Shown here one piece after another: positions 396 through 62,301 of a stretch of 64,000 nucleotides of DNA; the stretch's first letter is position 1, and each line of letters opens with the position of its first letter. The notes beneath the pieces were generated by a model. It was given only the letters and a program-made list of their open reading frames with translations, had not been told where the DNA came from and searched no databases. Both the position numbers and the translations under genes were made by a program. This DNA is from Acidobacteriota bacterium (GTDB lineage: Bacteria > Acidobacteriota > Thermoanaerobaculia > UBA5066 > Gp7-AA6), in assembly GCA_039933215.1 (NCBI GenBank), contig JBDTOO010000005.1, positions 22,990 through 86,989 on the forward strand, read 5' to 3'.

Positions 396-1247
396 TTACG
401 GGCAGGTCGAGAACGAAGACGTGTCCTGGATGGGCAGGAACGCCTGGTTCTGCGGATTGGAGTAGGTGCGAACCGCTCCCGTCTGGGTGTCGGTGACGGT
501 CAGGTTGACGAGCACGTTGGTGAGCCCGCCGGCGAACGTCCAGTAGCGGGAGTTCAATCCGCAGCCGTTCAAGACCTTGACGACGATCTCGACGTTCGAC
601 GAGGAGAAGAACCAGAAGTAGCCCGTGTCCGACGTGAGCTGGATAGGGGTCCCCGCGCCGGAGGCCGTCGTCGTCTGCCAGTTCGCCGACACGCGGAAGC
701 GGCTGTTCAGGCACATCGAGGTGGCGTTCGGCACGCACGCCGTGACAGCGCCGCACGACAGGGAGAGGAAGTAAGGCCCCCGATCCGCGATGTAGACCGC
801 GTTGGCGACAATCGTCCAAACACCTGTTGTCGGCAACGTGTAGATGATTTGCGCGTTCGTCCCGTCCGGGCCGCCGCCGCTATCGTCGTCGAGAGCGACG
901 GCCGTACCGGCGGGATTTCGCAGGATCAGATACGCGTCCAGAGCCGACGACGACATCGCGATCGTTACGGTCTGCCCTGCCGTTCCTTGAAACGTGTAGT
1001 TGTCGGCGCGAGTCTCGTCGCCGAGTTGGCAATCCTGGGAGTCCAGCGTGCCGTTGACCGATCCGCCGCACGTGATTCCCGACGTGGAGCAGGCGGTAGC
1101 GGAAAGCGGATGGACATTCTTGCTTCCGGCCTTGATCACTTTGCTGAGGGCGATCCCGGGCGACGCCTCCTGAGCGAACGCCGCCGCAGCTAATGCCAGC
1201 GCGAAGACCCCCGCGAGAGGGAGAACCCGGGGGAAAGGACGGATCAT
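396..1247 (-). CDS. Secreted protein: signal peptide + PPC-like beta-sandwich domain + conserved ~100-aa Cys-containing C-terminal domain (same domain as genes at 55.1-58.2 kb)
   Basis: True start is the ATG giving MIRPFPRVLPLAGVFALALAAAAFAQ (signal peptide). The upstream part of the 572-aa track ORF is antisense to PhzF. Middle region has DDDSGGGPDGTNAQ with D.Y.F / G.Y PPC-type motifs. C-terminus ...VKVLNGCGLNSRYWTF...TGAVRTYSNPQNQAFLPIQDTSSFSTCP aligns with the C-termini of the 55452 and 56873 genes. Confidence 0.75.
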   Translation of the reverse strand: MIRPFPRVLPLAGVFALALAAAAFAQEASPGIALSKVIKAGSKNVHPLSATACSTSGITCGGSVNGTLDSQDCQLGDETRADNYTFQGTAGQTVTIAMSSSALDAYLILRNPAGTAVALDDDSGGGPDGTNAQIIYTLPTTGVWTIVANAVYIADRGPYFLSLSCGAVTACVPNATSMCLNSRFRVSANWQTTTASGAGTPIQLTSDTGYFWFFSSSNVEIVVKVLNGCGLNSRYWTFAGGLTNVLVNLTVTDTQTGAVRTYSNPQNQAFLPIQDTSSFSTCP

Positions 1248-5722: not shown

Positions 5723-7938
5723 GCGCTCACGTCGGAAAGCCCCTCGACCGCGTCGACGGCCGTTTGAAGATCACGGGCGGCGCGAAGTACGCCGCCGAGT
5801 TCCGCCCGAGGGGCCTCGTTCACGCCGTCGCCGTGCAGAGCACGATCGCGCGCGGCGCCATCGCTTCCATCGACACGGCGGCCGCATCGAAGGCGCCCGG
5901 CGTCCTCGCGGTGCTCACGCACGCCAACGCCCCGCAGCTGAAGTCGCTCAAGGAAGGCGATCCGTCGGGCGGCCACGCGGGCGAAGACCTTCCGCCGCTG
6001 TCGACCGACGAGATCCATTTCGCGGGGCAGACGATCGCGCTCGTGATCGCCGAGAAGCTCGAGCAGGCGCGGCGGGGCGCGGCTCTGGTGAAGATCGCGT
6101 ACCGCGAGGAGAAGCCCGTGCTCGAGATCGCGGAGGCCGAGGGCTCGGCGACGAAGCCCGCCAGGCACATGGGGCGGGACGTCCAGCACCAGCGCGGCGA
6201 CGCCGCGGCGGGCTTCGCCGCAGGCCCCGTGAAGATCGAGGCGACCTATACGACTCCCGTCGAAACGCACAACCCGATGGAGCTTTCGGCGACGATCGCG
6301 GAATGGCAGGGCGACCGCCTCATGGTGTGGGACGCCACGCAGGCGGTCATCGGCACGCGCGGGAACCTCGCGAAGGCATTCGGGGTGCCGAAGTCGAACG
6401 TCCGCGTCCTGTGCCCCTACGTCGGCGGCGGATTCGGCTGCAAGGGATCCCAGTGGACCCACACGTTCGCGGCCGCGATGGCGGCGCGGTTCGTTAAGCG
6501 GCCCGTCCGTCTCGTCGTGACCCGCGCGCAGATGTTCACGTCGGCCGGCCACCGGCCGCCCACGGTCCAGAAGCTCGCTCTCGCGGCCGCCCGCGACGGC
6601 AAGCTCACCGCCATCCGCCACGAGTCCACGACGCCGACCTCCCCCGTGACCGACTACATCGAGCCGTGCGGGAAGACGACGAGCGCGATGCTCTACGCGT
6701 GCGAGAACGCGGACATCCCGCACCGCCTCGTGCGCGTCAACGTGGCGGCGCCGACCTTCATGCGCGCGCCGGGGGAGTGTCCGGGCACCTTCGCGATCGA
6801 GTCGGCGATGGACGAGCTGGCCGTGGCGCTCGAAATGGACCCGGTCGAGCTGCGGTTGAAGAACCACGCCGATGCGAATCCCTCGGACGGCAGGCCGTTC
6901 TCGTCGAAGTGGCTGAAAGACTGCTACGCGGTCGGCGCCGAGCGCTTCGGGTGGAAGAATCGCACGCCGCAGCCGGGCTCGATGAAGGACGGCAACCTGC
7001 TCGTCGGCTGGGGCATGGCGACCGCCGTCTATCCGGGCAACCGCTGGCCGGCTTCCGCGATCGTGAAGCTGACGCCGGACGGACGCGCGCGCGTGCGCGC
7101 CGCCACGCAGGATCTCGGGACCGGCGCGTACACGATCTTCACGCAGGTCTCCGCGGACTCACTGGGTCTTCCTGTCGAGCGGATCACGTTCGAGCTCGGC
7201 GACAGCGACTTTCCGGAGGCGCCCGTCTCCGGCGGGTCGAACAGCTCGGCGAGCGTCTCCGAGGCGATCATCCAGGCCGCCGCGGCCGTGAAAGCGAAGC
7301 TCGCGGGGATCGCCGCCGCCGATCCGGGCTCGCCGCTCGCGGGATTGAAGCCGGAGGAGCTCGCGCTCGCGGACGGGCGTCTCGTCTCCGCGGCCACGCC
7401 CTCCCGAGGCGTTCCCATCCAGGATCTCGTCCGGAAGAGCGGCGAATCGGGGGTCGAGGCCTCCGCGTCCGTCAAGCTCGAGGACGAGAAGACGAAGAAG
7501 TACTCGATCCACTCGTTCGGGGCCCATTTCTGCGAGGTGAAGATCGACGCGTTCCTTCCGCGCGTGCAGGTGACTCGGTGGGTGTCCGCGATGGACATCG
7601 GCCGGGTCCTGAACCCGAAGACGAGCCGCAGCCAGGTCCTGGGCGGCGTGACGATGGGCGTCGGCATGGCGCTCATGGAGCACACGGCCTACGACCCGCG
7701 GACCGGCCGGCCCGTGACGGACAACCTCGCGGACTACGCGGTCCCGGTGAATGCCGACATCGGATCGATCGAGGTCCACTTCATGGACAAGCCCGACCCG
7801 GTGATCAACTCCCTGGGCTGCCGCGGGGTCGGAGAGATCGGCATCACGGGCGCCGCGGCGGCCGTCGCCAACGCCGTCTACCACGCCACGGGCAAGCGCA
7901 TCCGCGATCTCCCGATCACGCCGGACAAGCTCCTTTGA
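5719..7938 (+). CDS. paoC: Aldehyde oxidoreductase molybdopterin-binding large subunit (PaoC/YagR-like, xanthine dehydrogenase family)
   Basis: MSAHVGKPLDRVDGRLKITGGAKYAAEF...; GGGFG motif; about 739 aa. ATG 5719 overlaps the stop of the FAD subunit (ATGA). Confidence 0.85.
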   Translation: MSAHVGKPLDRVDGRLKITGGAKYAAEFRPRGLVHAVAVQSTIARGAIASIDTAAASKAPGVLAVLTHANAPQLKSLKEGDPSGGHAGEDLPPLSTDEIHFAGQTIALVIAEKLEQARRGAALVKIAYREEKPVLEIAEAEGSATKPARHMGRDVQHQRGDAAAGFAAGPVKIEATYTTPVETHNPMELSATIAEWQGDRLMVWDATQAVIGTRGNLAKAFGVPKSNVRVLCPYVGGGFGCKGSQWTHTFAAAMAARFVKRPVRLVVTRAQMFTSAGHRPPTVQKLALAAARDGKLTAIRHESTTPTSPVTDYIEPCGKTTSAMLYACENADIPHRLVRVNVAAPTFMRAPGECPGTFAIESAMDELAVALEMDPVELRLKNHADANPSDGRPFSSKWLKDCYAVGAERFGWKNRTPQPGSMKDGNLLVGWGMATAVYPGNRWPASAIVKLTPDGRARVRAATQDLGTGAYTIFTQVSADSLGLPVERITFELGDSDFPEAPVSGGSNSSASVSEAIIQAAAAVKAKLAGIAAADPGSPLAGLKPEELALADGRLVSAATPSRGVPIQDLVRKSGESGVEASASVKLEDEKTKKYSIHSFGAHFCEVKIDAFLPRVQVTRWVSAMDIGRVLNPKTSRSQVLGGVTMGVGMALMEHTAYDPRTGRPVTDNLADYAVPVNADIGSIEVHFMDKPDPVINSLGCRGVGEIGITGAAAAVANAVYHATGKRIRDLPITPDKLL

Positions 7939-54847: not shown

Positions 54848-54989
54848 GCCGTCCCGCTTACACGTTCGCCCTCTCTCCGCCGGGGGAGAGGGCGATTTTC
54901 TTTTCGCGGGATCCTTCCGACCTCTCGAGCGCGGCCGACACCTCCGCCTTCTGAGCGGCGCCGACCACGTCCGGTTGCTCTCAACGGGC

Positions 54990-55045
54990 AGACTCCGAAG
55001 GAGGTGTCCTGGATCGGCTGGAACGCGTCCCCGTGTATTGGTGTG
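54990..55045 (-). pseudogene. Degenerate remnant of the conserved C-terminal-domain coding sequence (no complete ORF)
   Basis: GTGTCCTGGATCGGCTGGAACGCGTCCCC resembles the motif GTGTCCTGGATGGGTTGGAACGGCGTGCC found at the 3' ends of all CTD genes. Translation ...DAFQPIQDTSFGVCPL. Confidence 0.35.
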
Positions 55046-55073: not shown

Positions 55074-55418
55074 TCACGGGAGAGTCGCGAGGCCGGCGGC
55101 CGGGCAACTCGAGAACGCGCCCGTGTCCTGGATGGGTTGGAACGGCGTGCCGAGCGGGTTCTCGTAGGTCTTGATGGCACCGGTGTCGCGGTCGACGACC
55201 GTCAGCTCGATCCTGCCGATCTTCGGGGCGGCGATTTCATTGAACCAGAGCGCGCCGTCCGGCCCGACCGTGATCCCGCCCGGGCGACTCCCTTGCGTGG
55301 GAAGGTTGAAATACGTCAGCGTCTGGGCCGGTAGGAGCGTGGCGACGCCCGCCCCGACGAGAGCAAGAAAAACGATCACGATTCCAGAATTCGCCCGCGC
55401 TCCCGACCCGTGATGCAT
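55074..55418 (-). CDS. Truncated paralog: signal peptide + single Vgb-like blade + last ~35 aa of the conserved C-terminal domain
   Basis: MHHGSGARANSGIVIVFLALVGAGVATLLPAQT...GPDGALWFNE...LTVVDRDTGAIKTYENPLGTPFQPIQDTGAFSSCP. Probably a deletion derivative. Confidence 0.45.
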   Translation of the reverse strand: MHHGSGARANSGIVIVFLALVGAGVATLLPAQTLTYFNLPTQGSRPGGITVGPDGALWFNEIAAPKIGRIELTVVDRDTGAIKTYENPLGTPFQPIQDTGAFSSCPAAGLATLP

Positions 55419-55451
55419 GGGATCCTTCCTTTCAATCGGACCAAGGGCGAT

Positions 55452-56819
55452 CTAGGGGCAACTCGAAAAGGCCTCGGTGTCCAGGACGGGTTGGAACGGC
55501 GTGCCGTTCGGGTTCTCGAAGGCCTTGACCGCCCCCGTTTCCCTGTCGACGACCGTGACGACGACGCCGACGTTCGTGAGCCCCGTCACGAACACCCACG
55601 TGCGGTTGTTGACGGCACAACCGTTCAGGACCTTCGCCACGACTTCGACGTTCTGCGAGTCGAAGAATGTGAAGTAGCCGGCGTCTTCCGTGAGAGCGGC
55701 AGCCTGTCCCGGTCCGCTCGCCGACGCGGTCGTCCACCGGGCGGTGACCGCAAAACGATTTCCGCTCAGGCAGAGGGTCGTGACATCCGGGGTGCAGAGT
55801 CCAAGGCCGGTGGTGTATTCGAAGACTCCCTCGGATGTCGCGGCAAAGAGCCTCGCCGGGTTCAGGGGGTCGATGACGAGGGTATTGACGCTCTTCCCGG
55901 GTAAGCCTTCCATGCTCATTGCCGTCCAGCTATTGCCGCCGTCTCTGGTTCTATAGAGGCCTACGACTGTGGTGGCGTAGAGGTTCGCCGGGTTTCGAGG
56001 ATCGATCGCGAGCGCTCCGATCGCACCCGTTCCGGGCAGACCTGCGTTGACCGCAGTCCAGTTCTGTCCGGCGTCCCTGCTTCTGAACACCCCCATGCTC
56101 GTGCCCGCGTAGAGCGTCGCGGGTGCCAGCGGATCGATGACGAGATCAAAGACGGCCAGGCCGTTCAGCCCGACGCTCGACCAGGTGTGACCGGAGTCGA
56201 TGGTCCTGTAGAGACCCTGGTTCCAGAACGTCCCGGCGTAGAGAGTGGCCGACCTCGTCGGATCGACGGTGAGCACTGCGATGTCGGGAGGATTTTGAGC
56301 CATCCCGCTGGATCGCCAGCTCAGCCCGTTGTCCGTGCTCCTGAAGACGCACGGTCCGTCGCACCCGTATTCGTTAGTGCCCACATAGATGGTGGACGGG
56401 TTACCGGGGCTGATAACGAGTGCCGTGACGTCGAAATTGGGAAGTCCCCTGCTGGCCCAGGTCCAGCTGACACCGTCGTTGACGCTTCGAAAAACCGCTC
56501 TGTTCGTAGCGGCATAGAGGTTCCCCGGCCTGGCCGGATCGACAGCGAGTGCCCGTACGGACGCCTCAGGAGTTGCGTCGGAATGGATGAAATTCCATGT
56601 GCTGCCGCTGTCGGTGCTCTTGAACAGCCCCTGGTTGCTGAACGCGTAGAGAATGGACGGGGTCGTCGGATCGATGGCCAAAGCCCCGATGGAATCCCCT
56701 GCCGGTCCGTGCGTGGTCCAGGTGTTGATGCCCGCGGTGGCTTTCCCTCCGGTGAGGAAAAGCAGAACCAAGACCCTCGAGAGAATGGAGAGGAGCGAGG
56801 TTCCAGTCTTTCGGTTCAT
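55452..56819 (-). CDS. Secreted BNR/Asp-box repeat beta-propeller protein with conserved Cys-containing C-terminal domain
   Basis: Start MNRKTGTSLLSILSRVLVLLFLTGG, with GGAGG RBS. Six S-x-D-x-G-x-T-W-type units: STDSGSTW, SVNDGVSW, STDNGLSW, TIDSGHTW, SRDAGQNW and TRDGGNSW. C-terminal domain LCTPDVTTLCLSGNRFAVTARW...VKVLNGC...TPFQPVLDTEAFSSCP. Confidence 0.8.
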   Translation of the reverse strand: MNRKTGTSLLSILSRVLVLLFLTGGKATAGINTWTTHGPAGDSIGALAIDPTTPSILYAFSNQGLFKSTDSGSTWNFIHSDATPEASVRALAVDPARPGNLYAATNRAVFRSVNDGVSWTWASRGLPNFDVTALVISPGNPSTIYVGTNEYGCDGPCVFRSTDNGLSWRSSGMAQNPPDIAVLTVDPTRSATLYAGTFWNQGLYRTIDSGHTWSSVGLNGLAVFDLVIDPLAPATLYAGTSMGVFRSRDAGQNWTAVNAGLPGTGAIGALAIDPRNPANLYATTVVGLYRTRDGGNSWTAMSMEGLPGKSVNTLVIDPLNPARLFAATSEGVFEYTTGLGLCTPDVTTLCLSGNRFAVTARWTTASASGPGQAAALTEDAGYFTFFDSQNVEVVAKVLNGCAVNNRTWVFVTGLTNVGVVVTVVDRETGAVKAFENPNGTPFQPVLDTEAFSSCP

Positions 56820-56872
56820 GAGAGACCTCCAATGAATTGCGGAAGAGGCGTTGTCCCGGCGAGCTCGACGCT

Positions 56873-58207
56873 CTAGGGACAGCTCGCGAAGGCGCCCGTG
56901 TCCAGGATCGGCGGGAACGGTGTGCCGGGCGAATTGGAGTAGCTGCGGGCCGCGCCGGTCTCCACGTCGACGACAGTCAGGACCACGTAGACGTTCGTGA
57001 GCCCCGCCGCGAACACCCAGGTGTGCGAATTGATGCTGCAGCCGTTCAACACCTTCACGACGATCTCGACGTTGTTCGGGCCGAAGAAGGTGAAGTAGCC
57101 GGCATCCGGCGTGATGGCGACCGCCTGCCCGGAACCGATCGTCCCGTTGGCGATCCACTGGGTCGTGACCGCGAACCGTCCGCCGCGCAAGCAGAGTGTC
57201 GTCGCGTCCGGCACGCAGGCATTCGTCCCCTCCGACGTGATCCGCACGAGCTGGTTCCCCGCAGCGAGCCAGACATGGCGGTCCGGTCCCAGGACGAGGG
57301 GGCCGCTGGGCGCGCCGATCCCCCCGGAGATCGGGATCTCCGTGACGACGCCATCGGGTGAAATCCGGCCGATCCTTTCCGTCTGGTCCTCCGTGAACCA
57401 GAGGTTGCCGTCCGGGCCCGCGACGATATGGGAACCGGCGGCGCCGGACGGTACGGGGAATTCGGTGATGGCGCCGGCCGGGGTGATTCGACCGATCGTG
57501 GGCGCCGCTTCCGTGAACCAGAGGTTGCCGTCCGCGCCCAGCGAGAGGTCCTTGGCCCAATTCTCGTCTCGGATGGAAAATATTCTTGTATGGCCCGCGG
57601 CGTCGATCCGTCCGATGGCGGCCCCGTAGTATTCGCTGAACCAGACGTGACCATCGGAACCGGCGGCGATCCTAGAAGGGTCGGCGTGGGTCACGGTGAA
57701 TTCGGTGATGACTCCGGCCGGCGTGATCCGGCCGATCCTCGAGCTCGACCTCTCGGTGAACCAGACATTGCCGTCGGGGCCCGCCGCGATCGCCAACGGA
57801 AATCCGTCCGTCGTCGGGATCGAAAACTCGGTGACGACCCCGGCTGTGGAGATCCGTCCGATGGCCCCGCGGACCTCGGTGAACCAGAGATTTCCGTCCG
57901 GGCCGGCGGCGATGCCGCCGAGCTCGGTAACTCGATCGGGTGTGGAGAATTCCGTCACATCACCCGCCATGGTCATGCGCCCAATGCGGCCTCGGTTTCC
58001 GACGTACCAGAGGTTGCCGTCCGGGCCGGCCGCGAGGCCGATCACGGAGCCGGGAATCGGGAATGCCGTGAAAGTCTCCGCAGAAGCGGCGGCGGCGAAG
58101 CCGGCAGCCAGAGCGGCAAAGGCGGAGACCAGGACTCGGAAGCGGCGGTTGCCGCCGCGCTTTGCCACCCGGGTTTCATCCGCTCCGCTTTTCGTGGCGC
58201 AATTCAT
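56873..58207 (-). CDS. Secreted Vgb/streptogramin-lyase-like 7-blade beta-propeller protein with the same conserved C-terminal domain
   Basis: Start MNCATKSG...RFRVLVSAFAALAAGFAAAASA. Repeats GPDGNLWYVG, GPDGNLWFTE (three times), GPDGNVWFTE, GSDGHVWFSE and GADGNLWFTE. C-terminal domain ACVPDATTLCLRGGRFAVTTQW...VKVLNGC...TPFPPILDTGAFASCP. Confidence 0.8.
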   Translation of the reverse strand: MNCATKSGADETRVAKRGGNRRFRVLVSAFAALAAGFAAAASAETFTAFPIPGSVIGLAAGPDGNLWYVGNRGRIGRMTMAGDVTEFSTPDRVTELGGIAAGPDGNLWFTEVRGAIGRISTAGVVTEFSIPTTDGFPLAIAAGPDGNVWFTERSSSRIGRITPAGVITEFTVTHADPSRIAAGSDGHVWFSEYYGAAIGRIDAAGHTRIFSIRDENWAKDLSLGADGNLWFTEAAPTIGRITPAGAITEFPVPSGAAGSHIVAGPDGNLWFTEDQTERIGRISPDGVVTEIPISGGIGAPSGPLVLGPDRHVWLAAGNQLVRITSEGTNACVPDATTLCLRGGRFAVTTQWIANGTIGSGQAVAITPDAGYFTFFGPNNVEIVVKVLNGCSINSHTWVFAAGLTNVYVVLTVVDVETGAARSYSNSPGTPFPPILDTGAFASCP

Positions 58208-58254: not shown

Positions 58255-58704
58255 CTAGTTCACCGTCACGGAAAAATTGCCGCAGCCCTTCCCGGAGGGG
58301 GTTCGAACGCACGGCGTATACGGCCCCGGCGGGACATTCCCCGGAACCACGATTCCCACGCGCGTGCCGTTGAAGACGGATTCCTGGACGCTCATTTCGA
58401 ATACCGAAGCTCCCGCCTCGAAGGTGGCGACCGGGTCCGGAAACAAGTTTTTTCCACGGATGATCCAACCGGCGCGCGGGTAATAGTTCCTCGTCGGCTC
58501 CGCGGACGTGACCATCGGCACGCCGGAAGCGGGTGGTGGAAGACCCGGAATTGATGTGACCTCGCTATGCGGCTGGGTCGGAGCATACGGGTCGTCTTTG
58601 CAGGCAGAAACCAGAATTGCCGACGCGGCCAGGATCACCAGCGCCGCTCTGGCCAGGACGGCTCTCCCCTTTGGGACGGTTGCCATTTCGGGCACGGAAC
58701 GCAT
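58255..58704 (-). CDS. Small lipoprotein, possible IPT/TIG-like beta-sandwich
   Basis: AAGGAG RBS. Lipobox ILVSAC. ...SAEPTRNYYPRAGWIIRGKNLFPDPVATFEAG... Confidence 0.55.
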   Translation of the reverse strand: MRSVPEMATVPKGRAVLARAALVILAASAILVSACKDDPYAPTQPHSEVTSIPGLPPPASGVPMVTSAEPTRNYYPRAGWIIRGKNLFPDPVATFEAGASVFEMSVQESVFNGTRVGIVVPGNVPPGPYTPCVRTPSGKGCGNFSVTVN

Positions 58705-58796: not shown

Positions 58797-59426
58797 ATGC
58801 GATTCGATCTGGGAACCGTCACGCTCGACACGGATCGCCACCAGGTGTTTCGCGGCGCCCAGCCCCTGCACCTCTCCACGAGGGCTTTTCAGCTGCTGTC
58901 GATGCTCGTGGAGAACCGCCCGCGCGCTCTTTCGAAGGACGAGCTGCAGCGAGCGCTCTGGCCGGAGACGTTCGTGTCCGACACGAGCCTCACGACTCTC
59001 ATCAACGAGATCCGCTCGCTGCTCTCCGAGACCGCGAAGGACGCCCGACTCATCCGCACCGTGCACGGCTACGGCTACGCCTTCGAGGGCGCGACCTCTC
59101 CGGCGCCGCCTCCCGGGTGCCGCCTGATCTGGGGCGAGCGAGAGGTACCGCTCGCAGAAGGCGAGAACATCCTCGGACGCGACCCGGGCGCCCGCGGCTC
59201 CATCCCCGACGCTTCCATTTCTCGCCGCCATGCCCGGATCACGGTCCACGGCGACACGGCGACGCTCGTGGACCTGATGAGCAAGAACGGCACATGGGTC
59301 GGAGACCACCGTGTGACGGAGCCGATCGCGTTATCCGACGGCGACGCCGTGCGGTTGGGTCTCGTCCGTCTGGTCTTCCGCGCGGCGTCGGAAACCTCTT
59401 CTTCCACGACCAAGACCGTCCGCTGA
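58797..59426 (+). CDS. One-component regulator: OmpR/PhoB-type winged-helix DNA-binding domain fused to C-terminal FHA domain (no receiver domain)
   Basis: N-terminus LSTRAFQLLSMLVENRPRALSKDELQRALWPETFVSDTSLTTLINEIRSLL...IRTVHGYGYAF is the trans_reg_C family. C-terminus ...ENILGRDPGA...ISRRHARITVHGDTATLVDLMSKNGTWVGDHRV is an FHA domain. Confidence 0.8.
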   Translation: MRFDLGTVTLDTDRHQVFRGAQPLHLSTRAFQLLSMLVENRPRALSKDELQRALWPETFVSDTSLTTLINEIRSLLSETAKDARLIRTVHGYGYAFEGATSPAPPPGCRLIWGEREVPLAEGENILGRDPGARGSIPDASISRRHARITVHGDTATLVDLMSKNGTWVGDHRVTEPIALSDGDAVRLGLVRLVFRAASETSSSTTKTVR

Positions 59427-59532: not shown

Positions 59533-62301
59533 ATGAGGTTCGAGCGGGCGTCCGCGGTGGTGCTGTTCAGCGTGTGGGTTATGGCGGCTCGCGCGGCAGC
59601 TCAGGCCCCGTCGCCGACCGGGAATCTCTACGGCACCGCTCTTGACGCTCAAGGCCATTCGGTGATCGGCGTCACCGTGGCGCTCACAGGATCGGGCGCG
59701 GTGCAAACCGCGCAGACCGGTGCGAACGGCGATTTCCACTTCTTGAACCTTTCGCCGGGCGCATACGCCGTGCGACTCGATCGGACGGGATTCGAAACGG
59801 TGCGCCGAGACGTGACCGTCGTTCTCGGTAAGAGCTCGGTGATCTCGATCACGATGCCCGTCGCGGGCGCGGTGGAGGACGTCACGGTCCATGGGGACGC
59901 GCCCGCTCTGGACAACCGCAAGATCCAGACGGGCGCGACTTTCGGCCAAAAGGAGCTCGAGAGTATCCCCACGACACGGGATCCGTGGGCCATCCTCCGT
60001 CAGGTACCCGGCGTCCTGATCGAAACTGTGAACGTGGGAGGCAACCCGCATGCGAGACAGCCCCTCTTCGTCGGTAAGGGCGCTCACCCGGATCAGAACA
60101 GCTACAACCTCGACGGTGTCGCGATCAGCCTTGGAGGGATCTCTCCGCTCTTCTTCGACTTCGATTCTTTGAGCGACATCGAGGTCGCGACCGGCGGCTC
60201 CGACCCGTCGCTCGCCACCCCTGGCGTGACAATCAACCTCGTTACCAAGCGCGGCACCAACCGGCTCAAGGGCTCGGCTCGCGTTCTGTACACCGGTGGC
60301 GCCGGGTGGGATTTCGGAATCGAGGCCGGTGGCTCGCCCTGGAAAGACCATTTGTGGGTCTGGGGCGCCGCCGCGCGGAACTCTTACCTGGGCCACACAT
60401 TCTTCTCGAACACGGGCGAGGCCGTCCGGAGCCAGGAGACGCTCGAGCACTGGAACGCGAAGTTGAACGCGCAGCTCCTGCCGGACAACGCGCTCGCTCT
60501 CACCTACACCGATTTCAAGAGGCTCAATCTGGGCCTCGCCAGCCCGGACTTTTCCAGAGCCTCGACCGGAGACAATGTTCGCCCGGGGAAGTCTTACAGA
60601 GTGGAGGACTCACAGGTCCTGTCCGCGCGGCTTTTCGCCTCCCTCTATGTCTCGTATGTAACGGCCGTTTCGACGGCGAAGCCCGAGGGAGGAATCGACG
60701 AGCAGGCGGAGCAGGACATCGATCTCATCTGGCAGCGGAGCTATTGGTCCCGCCGGTTCCGGGATTCGCAGCAATCGACCGGAACCAGTGCGTCGGCCTT
60801 CTTCGACACGGGCGGCCTGCGTCACGAGCTGAAGTTCGGATTCGGATTCAGGCATACCCGATCCGACGAGGCGTTGAGCTGGCCCGGGGACGGGCTCGTT
60901 GGCTACGCGTTTTACCGCCAGGTCGGGATCACGCGCCGGCAGGATCAAAAATCCGAGGTGAATCACTACTTCGCGTTCTTCGGTGACACGGTCCAGGCGG
61001 GCAACCTCACGCTGAATTTCGGCGCCCGGTTCGACTACCAGCAGGGGAGGAATCTGGCGGCGTCGGTTCCGGCCAATCCGGTCTTTCCAGAGCTACTACC
61101 GGCCGTCCAATACGACGGCGATTCGAATTACCCGATCACGCGGCGGCAAATTCAGCCCAGGGTCGGGGCGACGTACGCCCTTGGCCGACACCGCACGCTG
61201 CTCCGCGCCTCCTATTCCCGATTCGCCGACCAGCTGAGCAGCACCCCGGTCCGGTTCATCAGTGCATTCCCGGACATCGCGGCCCTCTACTACAGCTGGA
61301 ACGACGCAAACGGAAACGACCGCGTCGAACGGGACGAGGTGAACCTCTCCGACCCCCAGGGCTTCGTCGGTGTCGACCCGAACGATCCAGGATCCTCCGC
61401 CTCCGTCAATCGGATCGCGAGCGGCTTCGAGCCCCCTGTCACGGACGAGTACATCCTCCAGGTCGAACGGCAGATCGCATCCGACTTGTCGGGCTCTGTT
61501 TCGTACACCTACCGCAAATCCCGCAACCCTCTATTTTTCGACCTGATCGGAACGAGCGCCGACAGCTATCGATATCTCGGCAATGCGACGGGTACGTTCA
61601 CCGATGGCGCCGGATTCGTCGTCAACTTCAGCGAGCCTTATTACGGACTGACGGACCCACCTCCCGTGGGAACCGAGCTCCGGAATCGTCCGGATGCCAA
61701 CGAGACGTACGAGGGGGTGGAGCTCCAGCTGCTCAAGTCGTTCTCCCACGGCTGGATGGCTCGATTGAGCGCCTCCTTCAACGACTGGCGACAACACGTC
61801 GGCCCGCGCGCGATCTTCAATCCGAACAACGAGACCCCGGGCACCAATGCCAACGGTCCGACGGGCGAGGGAGTCATCAACTCGAAGTGGCAATTCAATG
61901 TGAGCGGTATGGTCGCGCTTCCGCTCGGAATCGAAGCCGGCCTGAATCTGTTCGGCCGCCAGGGCTTTTCGATTCCCTACTGGGTGGAAGTGGTGACCGG
62001 GGATTCGAACTTCAACAGGCCCGGCATTCAGATCGGACAGGCGACGCGCTATAGAGCGCCCGATCTCTACGATCTCGATCTCCAGATTGCGAAGGTGTTT
62101 CGGATCGGATCGTTAACCGTGACTCCGCAAATCGCGTGCTTCAATTTGCTGGACAGCCGCACCGTACTGCAACGCGATGGGTTCGTCGGGACATACGATC
62201 CCCAGGAGACCCCGGACTTCCGGAAGAATGAGAGTTTCAACGCGCCGATCGAGGCTTTGAGCAAGCGCGTCTTCCGCGGCGGCGTGCGGATCGAGTTCTA
62301 A
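59533..62301 (+). CDS. TonB-dependent receptor-like outer-membrane protein with N-terminal carboxypeptidase-regulatory-like domain
   Basis: Signal peptide. GTALDAQGHSVIGVTVALTGSGAVQTAQTGANGDFHFLNLSPGAYAVRL is CarbopepD_reg. Long beta-barrel region ending with aromatic residue ...GGVRIEF. Confidence 0.8.
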   Translation: MRFERASAVVLFSVWVMAARAAAQAPSPTGNLYGTALDAQGHSVIGVTVALTGSGAVQTAQTGANGDFHFLNLSPGAYAVRLDRTGFETVRRDVTVVLGKSSVISITMPVAGAVEDVTVHGDAPALDNRKIQTGATFGQKELESIPTTRDPWAILRQVPGVLIETVNVGGNPHARQPLFVGKGAHPDQNSYNLDGVAISLGGISPLFFDFDSLSDIEVATGGSDPSLATPGVTINLVTKRGTNRLKGSARVLYTGGAGWDFGIEAGGSPWKDHLWVWGAAARNSYLGHTFFSNTGEAVRSQETLEHWNAKLNAQLLPDNALALTYTDFKRLNLGLASPDFSRASTGDNVRPGKSYRVEDSQVLSARLFASLYVSYVTAVSTAKPEGGIDEQAEQDIDLIWQRSYWSRRFRDSQQSTGTSASAFFDTGGLRHELKFGFGFRHTRSDEALSWPGDGLVGYAFYRQVGITRRQDQKSEVNHYFAFFGDTVQAGNLTLNFGARFDYQQGRNLAASVPANPVFPELLPAVQYDGDSNYPITRRQIQPRVGATYALGRHRTLLRASYSRFADQLSSTPVRFISAFPDIAALYYSWNDANGNDRVERDEVNLSDPQGFVGVDPNDPGSSASVNRIASGFEPPVTDEYILQVERQIASDLSGSVSYTYRKSRNPLFFDLIGTSADSYRYLGNATGTFTDGAGFVVNFSEPYYGLTDPPPVGTELRNRPDANETYEGVELQLLKSFSHGWMARLSASFNDWRQHVGPRAIFNPNNETPGTNANGPTGEGVINSKWQFNVSGMVALPLGIEAGLNLFGRQGFSIPYWVEVVTGDSNFNRPGIQIGQATRYRAPDLYDLDLQIAKVFRIGSLTVTPQIACFNLLDSRTVLQRDGFVGTYDPQETPDFRKNESFNAPIEALSKRVFRGGVRIEF

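Follow-up and report, generated by a model that had tools for sequence, protein, structure and literature searches.

A cysteine-containing module shared by diverse, putatively exported proteins of Thermoanaerobaculia-type Acidobacteriota

Within a 64,000-nucleotide stretch of an Acidobacteriota bacterium (assembly GCA_039933215.1, contig JBDTOO010000005.1, positions 22,990 to 86,989 of the forward strand; the whole stretch is called the window, and feature positions are counted from its first nucleotide), several minus-strand genes encode proteins that differ in their N-terminal parts and share one C-terminal module. The question raised by this locus is what a single module does on such different proteins. 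Soils and sediments harbour abundant Thermoanaerobaculia and related Acidobacteriota, which are almost entirely uncultured. The module represents a large, lineage-typical domain family without a model in the searched Pfam-A and NCBIfam libraries, and without a significant solved relative in a fold search of the PDB, and its kind appears to be familiar, that of accessory or targeting modules fused promiscuously to exported proteins. The tentatively preferred reading, which draws on sequence and on a structure model, is that it may serve as an autonomous extracytoplasmic binding or anchoring module.

Module copies in the window and in other genomes

Gene A (396-1247, minus strand, 283 aa) encodes a signal-peptide-like N-terminus reading ...LALAAAAFA/QEA, a PPC domain at residues 82-147 (Pfam, E 3.7e-9), and, downstream of it at residues 171-283, module copy A (399-737, minus strand, 113 aa; detected by tblastn and by hmmsearch over hidden Markov model (HMM) positions 1-114, E 2.4e-53), which ends ...FSTCP with no residue between the module and the stop codon. 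Gene B (55452-56819, minus strand, 455 aa) combines a putative signal peptide and a BNR/sortilin-type propeller (Pfam Sortilin-Vps10/BNR, E 2.2e-19) with C-terminal copy B (55455-55796, minus strand, 114 aa; tblastn and hmmsearch, E 7.8e-50). The protein also scored 165 bits against the NCBIfam model 'F510_1955 family glycosylhydrolase', just under the cutoff of 175, and a sub-threshold NCBIfam match to PorZ (21.5 bits, cutoff 260) is propeller similarity. Gene C (56873-58207, minus strand, 444 aa) combines a putative signal peptide and a Vgb-lyase-like beta-propeller (Pfam Vgb_lyase, E 1.1e-80) with C-terminal copy C at residues 331-444 (56876-57217, minus strand, 114 aa; tblastn and hmmsearch, E 9.7e-53). 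The original prediction of one module on PPC, BNR/sortilin and Vgb-like passengers was borne out by Pfam, the shared module being real and its length 113-114 aa, not the ~100 aa first given.

The window has a GC content of 68.6% and contains many spurious open reading frames (ORFs). All four minus-strand ORFs that had been proposed, genes A, B and C and a shorter gene D (55074-55418), were found, each with an ATG start and a Shine-Dalgarno (SD)-like GGAGG or AAGGA upstream (GGAGG in gene A), and with a GC content at third codon positions (GC3) of 0.78-0.84 (0.83 in gene A, 0.84 in gene C), versus 0.52-0.73 in the overlapping antisense ORFs. Since their GC3 is that of coding sequence and SD-like sites precede them, genes A, B and C are real despite the high GC content of the genome. 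All four products start with a signal-peptide-like N-terminus, as judged by eye from the sequence.

Module copies A, B and C are 54-64% identical to one another (B versus C 64%, B versus A 54%), with tblastn E-values of 1e-34 to 1e-43 between window copies, far past chance. A 'VKVLNGC' string had been called invariant; only KVLNGC is invariant in the window, copy B reading AKVLNGC. The proposed 'QDT' near the chain end is the family consensus and is present in two of four window copies, the other two having LDT. It could be argued that the similarity is a local artefact, either of recent duplication in this genome only or of chance ORF likeness in high-GC DNA, as three copies are adjacent and the window is GC-rich and full of spurious ORFs. 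This explanation is given practically no weight, since the copies are no more than 54-64% identical, thousands of homologues exist elsewhere, GC3 and SD sites are those of coding sequence, and the predicted structure described below is confident. A recent duplication confined to this genome was rejected on the identity values, and artefact and recent duplication alike are excluded by the within-window tblastn, the cluster counts and the reference-genome matches. The window paralogues are as distant from one another (54-64% identity) as from homologues of other genomes (55-63%), which indicates that the duplications and the shuffling are old.

Searched exhaustively with a HMMER profile, 1.84 billion representatives yielded 10,572 clusters at 50% identity with E<=1e-3, of which 6,197 had E<=1e-30, and at least 590 module stretches were confirmed in reference genomes (one genome per GTDB species). 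Where the clusters have a named taxon, it is nearly always a Thermoanaerobaculia (Acidobacteriota) metagenome-assembled genome. The module is neither a previously characterised domain nor confined to one genome, the two outcomes that would have spoken against the original prediction. It is multi-copy per genome, and the NCBI name of its members is 'hypothetical protein'. A word-indexed search with module C gave 63 metagenomic proteins (E 1e-18 to 1e-40). The protein samples are biased, in that the top 150 representatives were all multi-copy and the word-indexed searches returned only proteins of ~200 aa or shorter. Locus-level analyses were carried out on the best 80 of the at least 590 genomic stretches, and 77 of these 80 loci carry the label Acidobacteriota or Thermoanaerobaculia, or that of one of two Candidatus genera which NCBI taxonomy puts in the latter class; the other three are one 'Holophagales' locus and two loci of one 'Deltaproteobacteria' metagenome-assembled genome (MAG). 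The family is real, ancient and strongly constrained.

A divergent subfamily was recovered with a module copy of the database protein P0112 as query, giving 90 further proteins, to which the only names attached are those of Holophagales and Chloroflexi MAGs. P0112 itself (740 aa) has, behind a reprolysin/M12-like metallopeptidase fragment, four consecutive divergent copies of the module, more than any other protein seen. The subfamily signature, 'SGLFYFF..NWEILIKVLDGC..HHWVY', is also present in many PKD-plus-module proteins of ~186 aa.

Predicted fold, cysteines and comparison with known families

AlphaFold2 was run on module copy C alone with a 61-sequence alignment, and this structure prediction, which the original prediction had proposed as a check, produced a very confident fold (predicted local distance difference test score 97.6, predicted template modelling score 0.90), consisting of ten beta-strands and one short helix. 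On this model, the module is predicted to be an autonomously folding all-beta domain of ~114 aa. An outer-membrane beta-barrel anchor was rejected, by inspection only, on the grounds of strands mostly 4-9 residues long (one having 10), the putative disulfides, a polar core-type pattern and the lack of a C-terminal aromatic residue.

Conservation and cysteine statistics were computed from 467 unique copies of the module. Loss of the four cysteines is pairwise, with the pattern 'xxCC' occurring 30 times and 'CCxx' 24 times, and none of the 26 copies without C60 has C113. Fisher tests, whose p-values ignore sequence relatedness, gave p=8e-29 for C1/C9 and p=2e-25 for C60/C113, while the cross-pair C9/C60 was independent (p=0.24). 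Since cysteine loss is pair-specific, two disulfides, C1-C9 and C60-C113, are likely to form, the latter of which would staple the C-terminal tail to the domain; the two bonds would agree with a location outside the cytoplasm, under oxidising conditions. What follows the last cysteine depends on the position of the copy, namely proline directly before the stop in 209 of 253 terminal copies (83%), versus proline in 17 of 188 internal copies (p about 1e-60). A final proline is thus characteristic of terminal copies.

Near-invariant positions in the same set of copies include R14, G40, F44, F45, N49, E51, K55, W67, G72, L73, T74 and D84. Invariance among the charged and polar residues (R14, D38, N49, E51, K55, D84 and D106), together with the existence of stand-alone forms, would fit a module that is itself active. 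It could be a small enzyme, bind metal, or inhibit an enzyme in the manner of the MliC/PliC-like lysozyme inhibitor barrels. Faint matches in this direction were a sequence match to E. coli YdhA/MliC (2f09, E 0.74) and a fold match to a phage 'putative lysozyme inhibitor' (template modelling (TM) score 0.29). Both lie at noise level, Pfam MliC does not match, and neither sequence nor fold searches gave a significant match to MliC/PliC, so the MliC-like inhibitor was rejected; fusion to more than 50 unrelated families is, moreover, atypical of catalytic or inhibitor domains. An activity residing in the module itself is accordingly regarded as quite improbable.

Searches of curated libraries were made with the four window proteins and with five divergent, tandem or stand-alone homologues (P0025, P0050, P0060, P0065 and P0112). 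In hmmscan against Pfam-A (2025) and NCBIfam 20.0 at E<=1, nothing matched over the module in the window proteins or in the homologues, the single trace being a sub-threshold, 29-residue Ig_J match in P0065 (20.9 bits, cutoff 29). The precomputed Pfam column was empty for module-only proteins. Against PDB sequences, two profiles (A1 and A2) returned only noise, such as a portal protein at E 1.1 and the YdhA match already mentioned. The earlier failure to assign the module to a named family was thereby repeated with Pfam-A, NCBIfam and PDB sequences. Foldseek gave no significant relative in the PDB (best E 0.24, TM score 0.36) or in BFVD (best E 0.017, TM score 0.25). Literature searches on Thermoanaerobaculia secretion and C-terminal domains, and on the motif strings of the module, returned nothing relevant and no description of the module.

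Dockerin, S-layer homology (SLH) and those carbohydrate-binding module (CBM) families held in Pfam gave no curated-model match and no clear fold match. The module resembles CBMs, dockerins and SLH repeats in its promiscuous fusion through flexible linkers, its often C-terminal position, its tandem duplication and its stand-alone versions; it differs from them in lacking sequence or significant fold similarity, and in having passengers that are mostly not carbohydrate-active enzymes (CAZymes). PPC (PF04151) and P-domains, which are small beta-sandwiches at the C-termini of secreted peptidases, offer a further comparison; PF04151 does not match the module itself, and in gene A the PPC domain is a passenger upstream of it.

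Domain architecture and possible function

Module position was assessed in a pool of the host ORFs of the 80 loci and 213 database proteins. The passengers are highly varied, with at least 51 Pfam families in 93 passenger segments, and include Vgb-like, PQQ, NHL and BNR propellers, PPC, PKD, M4 and M10 metallopeptidases, trypsin-like peptidases, cupredoxins, LRR, fn3 and beta-helix proteins; recognisable CAZymes are few. The original prediction had asked whether the module always sits at the extreme C-terminus, and it does not. The last module is terminal in 261 of 297 pooled proteins (88%), and 80 of 90 host ORFs from the 80 loci stop within 4 aa of the module end. Tandem pairs with linkers of ~30-55 aa occur in 25 of the 90 host ORFs, and non-terminal copies in about 10, including module pairs placed right after the signal peptide and followed by 145-800 more residues. 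Pairs N-terminal to other domains were found in P0074, P0083, L034, L047 and L075 (P and L numbers denoting database proteins and genomic loci, respectively), and conserved stand-alone proteins, with nothing but a short linker between signal peptide and module, are represented by P0025, P0035, P0038, P0045, P0050, P0054 and P0055. Arrays of adjacent module genes, as in the window, are present at L017, L018, L022, L040, L045, L048, L066, L070 and L076.

The strong preference for the C-terminus, and a Cys-Pro-stop selected only in terminal copies, could be explained if the module tagged cargo for a new system of outer-membrane secretion or surface attachment, as a functional analogue of the C-terminal domain (CTD) of the type IX secretion system (T9SS). 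The module would then fold in the periplasm and be recognised, including its Cys-Pro-COOH end, by a translocon or sortase-like enzyme, which would send the cargo across or onto the outer membrane. The cargo is unrelated and comes from at least 51 families, with many peptidases, propellers, PKD and LRR proteins; it is closer to the T9SS and PEP-CTERM cargo lists than to those of CBM-bearing enzymes. The module also typifies one lineage and is present in several copies per genome. T9SS CTDs (type A, TIGR04183/PF18962 Por_Secre_tail; type B, CHU_C-like) are likewise lineage-restricted, present in many copies per genome, and located at the end of many unrelated Sec-exported proteins, and their size (~80-110 aa) and beta-rich fold are comparable to those of the module.

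The comparison breaks down at several points. The module has two conserved putative disulfides, ends in Cys-Pro, is also found in tandem, at internal positions and on its own, and is much more conserved in sequence than T9SS CTDs; secretion tags are in general usually far less conserved than this. Stand-alone proteins carry no cargo, some module pairs are N-terminal or internal with up to 800 residues after them, and duplicated internal copies keep their full conservation. The T9SS CTD models, of type A (TIGR04183/PF18962) and type B (CHU_C), matched neither the four window proteins nor the five scanned homologues, no T9SS CTD structure was among the listed fold matches, and T9SS is not known in Acidobacteriota. 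No other sorting-domain HMM of Pfam-A or NCBIfam matched; in particular, PEP-CTERM, LPXTG, GlyGly-CTERM and MYXO-CTERM models had no match in the window proteins. These signals are also C-terminal on diverse secreted proteins of particular lineages, and consist of a motif of ~25-35 aa with a transmembrane helix and a basic tail, whereas the module is a 114-aa globular domain without a hydrophobic helix, and the window proteins end ...DT..F..CP-stop without a C-terminal hydrophobic helix or basic tail. The original prediction that the module is not a T9SS CTD, PEP-CTERM, LPXTG or GlyGly-CTERM signal is upheld by the HMM searches and, for the three short signals, also by the form of the chain end.

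The genes beside the module were compared by all-against-all clustering of the ORFs flanking the 80 loci, in which no gene family, and no sortase, peptidase or transporter, recurred. The only clusters found were the antisense shadow of the module and one syntenic orthologous locus common to 10 genomes. A translocon-like or peptidase-like neighbour, which a cargo tag might be expected to have, did not recur, whereas the absence of any recurrent neighbour is as expected for a self-sufficient binding module. Since copies are found in tandem, internally, N-terminally and alone, and no sortase or peptidase regularly adjoins them, the option of a sorting signal is weakened and autonomous binding or anchoring is favoured. 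A cargo-tag role is the main alternative and is considered unlikely, although far from negligible. Its fullest form is a little more doubtful still. The module would here be the domain by which a new pathway of Thermoanaerobaculia and related Acidobacteriota recognises its cargo, for secretion through the outer membrane or for covalent attachment to the surface. Such a pathway would have arisen independently of the T9SS CTD and its sortase and work by analogy with them, and the disulfide-stapled Cys-Pro-COOH would determine recognition or processing. If this were true, the module-bearing proteins would define the secretome of that system.

The position and form of the chain end also bear on a third possibility, a stabilising C-terminal cap or folding aid like the PPC and P-domains of secreted proteases, which would help passengers to fold in the periplasm or shield them from proteolysis at the C-terminus, might or might not be removed afterwards, and would bind no external ligand. 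The C-terminal location in most proteins, the stapled terminus ending in proline, and the frequent occurrence on secreted peptidases (M4, M10 and trypsin-like) would fit such a role. Stand-alone, N-terminal and tandem copies do not fit it, and gene A already has a PPC domain upstream of the module. In addition, paralogues with unrelated passengers appear to have conserved polar, surface-type residues in common, which makes co-adaptation to the passenger unlikely. A cap or folding aid is for these reasons judged improbable.

The domain has been shuffled onto many unrelated, putatively Sec-exported proteins of Thermoanaerobaculia-type Acidobacteriota; as an autonomous binding or anchoring module, it would act in non-catalytic targeting, each copy binding the same conserved partner. 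The partner, a glycan or a protein, would most plausibly belong to the envelope or extracellular matrix of the producing cell, and this is considered likelier than a substrate polymer given the small number of CAZymes among the passengers. Through the module, passengers such as peptidases, propellers and PKD/PPC proteins would be held at a common location, tandem copies would add avidity, and stand-alone copies would be free binders. The terminal Cys-Pro-COOH would be a stapled, exopeptidase-resistant structural cap and not a cleavage signal.

Several results weigh against this proposal. The scarcity of CAZyme passengers disfavours one common form of binding, that of a substrate-polysaccharide CBM, and the fold searches of the PDB and BFVD gave no significant match to a CBM, lectin or anchor domain. 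The 88% preference for the C-terminus and the selection of Cys-Pro-stop in terminal copies only fit a recognition tag as well as a structural cap, and a catalytic or metal site could instead account for the many charged residues that do not vary. The strength of the cysteine covariation is also to be read with the relatedness of the copies in mind.

Two loci allow a comparison with a known surface anchor. At L081 and L083, stand-alone module genes are located among genes for S8 peptidase, GH44, PKD and beta-helix proteins that end in three SLH-like repeats, and since these neighbours carry SLH-like repeats instead, the module fills the architectural slot of a known surface anchor. The SLH-like repeats of these proteins (L081:2108-14353, L083:734-14322) contain paired cysteines, 'GVTxGC..YCP..VTRxQMAVFLLK', an SLH-type anchor variant that looks unusual in itself.

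Irrespective of its role, one domain marks more than 10,000 sequence clusters of putatively exported proteins, among them peptidases, propellers, PKD, LRR and cupredoxin proteins and a putative glycosylhydrolase. Once defined, the module would serve as an annotation marker for the predicted exported or surface proteome of the Thermoanaerobaculia lineage, and as a candidate new fold family for structural study. The module, its two putative disulfides and its Cys-Pro end may provide handles toward an envelope or matrix ligand organising these enzymes, or toward new secretion or attachment machinery.

The paralogue array, its surroundings and unusual homologues

Genes C, B and D of the window are co-directional, with gaps of 53 and 33 nucleotides. 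Gene D (55074-55418, minus strand, 114 aa) had been described as truncated, and this was found to be due to an in-frame internal deletion. It encodes a putative signal peptide, one Vgb-type blade reaching to ...IGRI (Pfam Vgb_lyase, residues 31-72), module residues 78-114 (55101-55211 by tblastn), and an 8-aa read-through, AAGLATLP. From a blastp comparison with gene C and from tblastn, gene D is best described as an internal-deletion derivative of a gene-C-like paralogue, and is probably decaying. A fifth remnant, consisting of the module tail only (DAFQPIQDTSFGVCP, 54985-55026, minus strand; tblastn versus copy A: E 0.029, 73% identity over 15 aa), lies just downstream of gene D, without a stop after CP and without an intact ORF. 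Gene D and this tail-only remnant indicate ongoing deletion and decay in the array, and the C-B-D cluster is a decaying, recombining set of paralogues.

At the other end of the array, the putative signal peptide of gene C (58076-58207, minus strand) has 'NRRFRVLV' ahead of its hydrophobic core; by its residues this may be a twin-arginine (Tat)-like motif, which would be odd for a protein with periplasmic disulfides. A co-directional ORF of 149 aa (58255-58704, minus strand) with a lipobox-like LVSAC and no Pfam match lies 47 nucleotides upstream of gene C, and may belong to one transcription unit with genes C, B and D.

The window neighbours are of ordinary kinds, Pfam assigning among them an S9 peptidase, an amidohydrolase, a Trans_reg_C+FHA regulator and a CarboxypepD_reg/Plug TonB-dependent receptor, and a scan of 10 neighbouring proteins showed nothing T9SS-like. 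The flanking genes of the window are 68-78% identical at the DNA level to several Acidobacteriota/Thermoanaerobaculia MAG loci, and L004 is partly syntenic with the window at 58.7-64 kb. The Trans_reg_C+FHA regulator (58797-59426, plus strand) adjoins the CarboxypepD_reg/Plug TonB-dependent-receptor-like gene (59533-62301, plus strand), and in L004, too, the conserved pair adjoins a module gene. The module-bearing gene of this locus has its second copy (6473-6857) spread over three reading frames, so this gene is either a pseudogene or affected by long-read assembly frameshifts.

Among the homologues with N-terminal module pairs, five (P0074, P0083, L034:4996-8298, L075:5533-8193 and L047:5725-7527) have two modules after the signal peptide, followed by a Cys-rich region. 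This region contains 'YCGPGNS ... CF(T/Q)HD(N/T)CY', resembling motifs of secreted phospholipase A2, with Pfam Phospholip_A2_4 matching only at E 0.08-0.3. In P0083, the Cys-rich region is followed by five BACON repeats.

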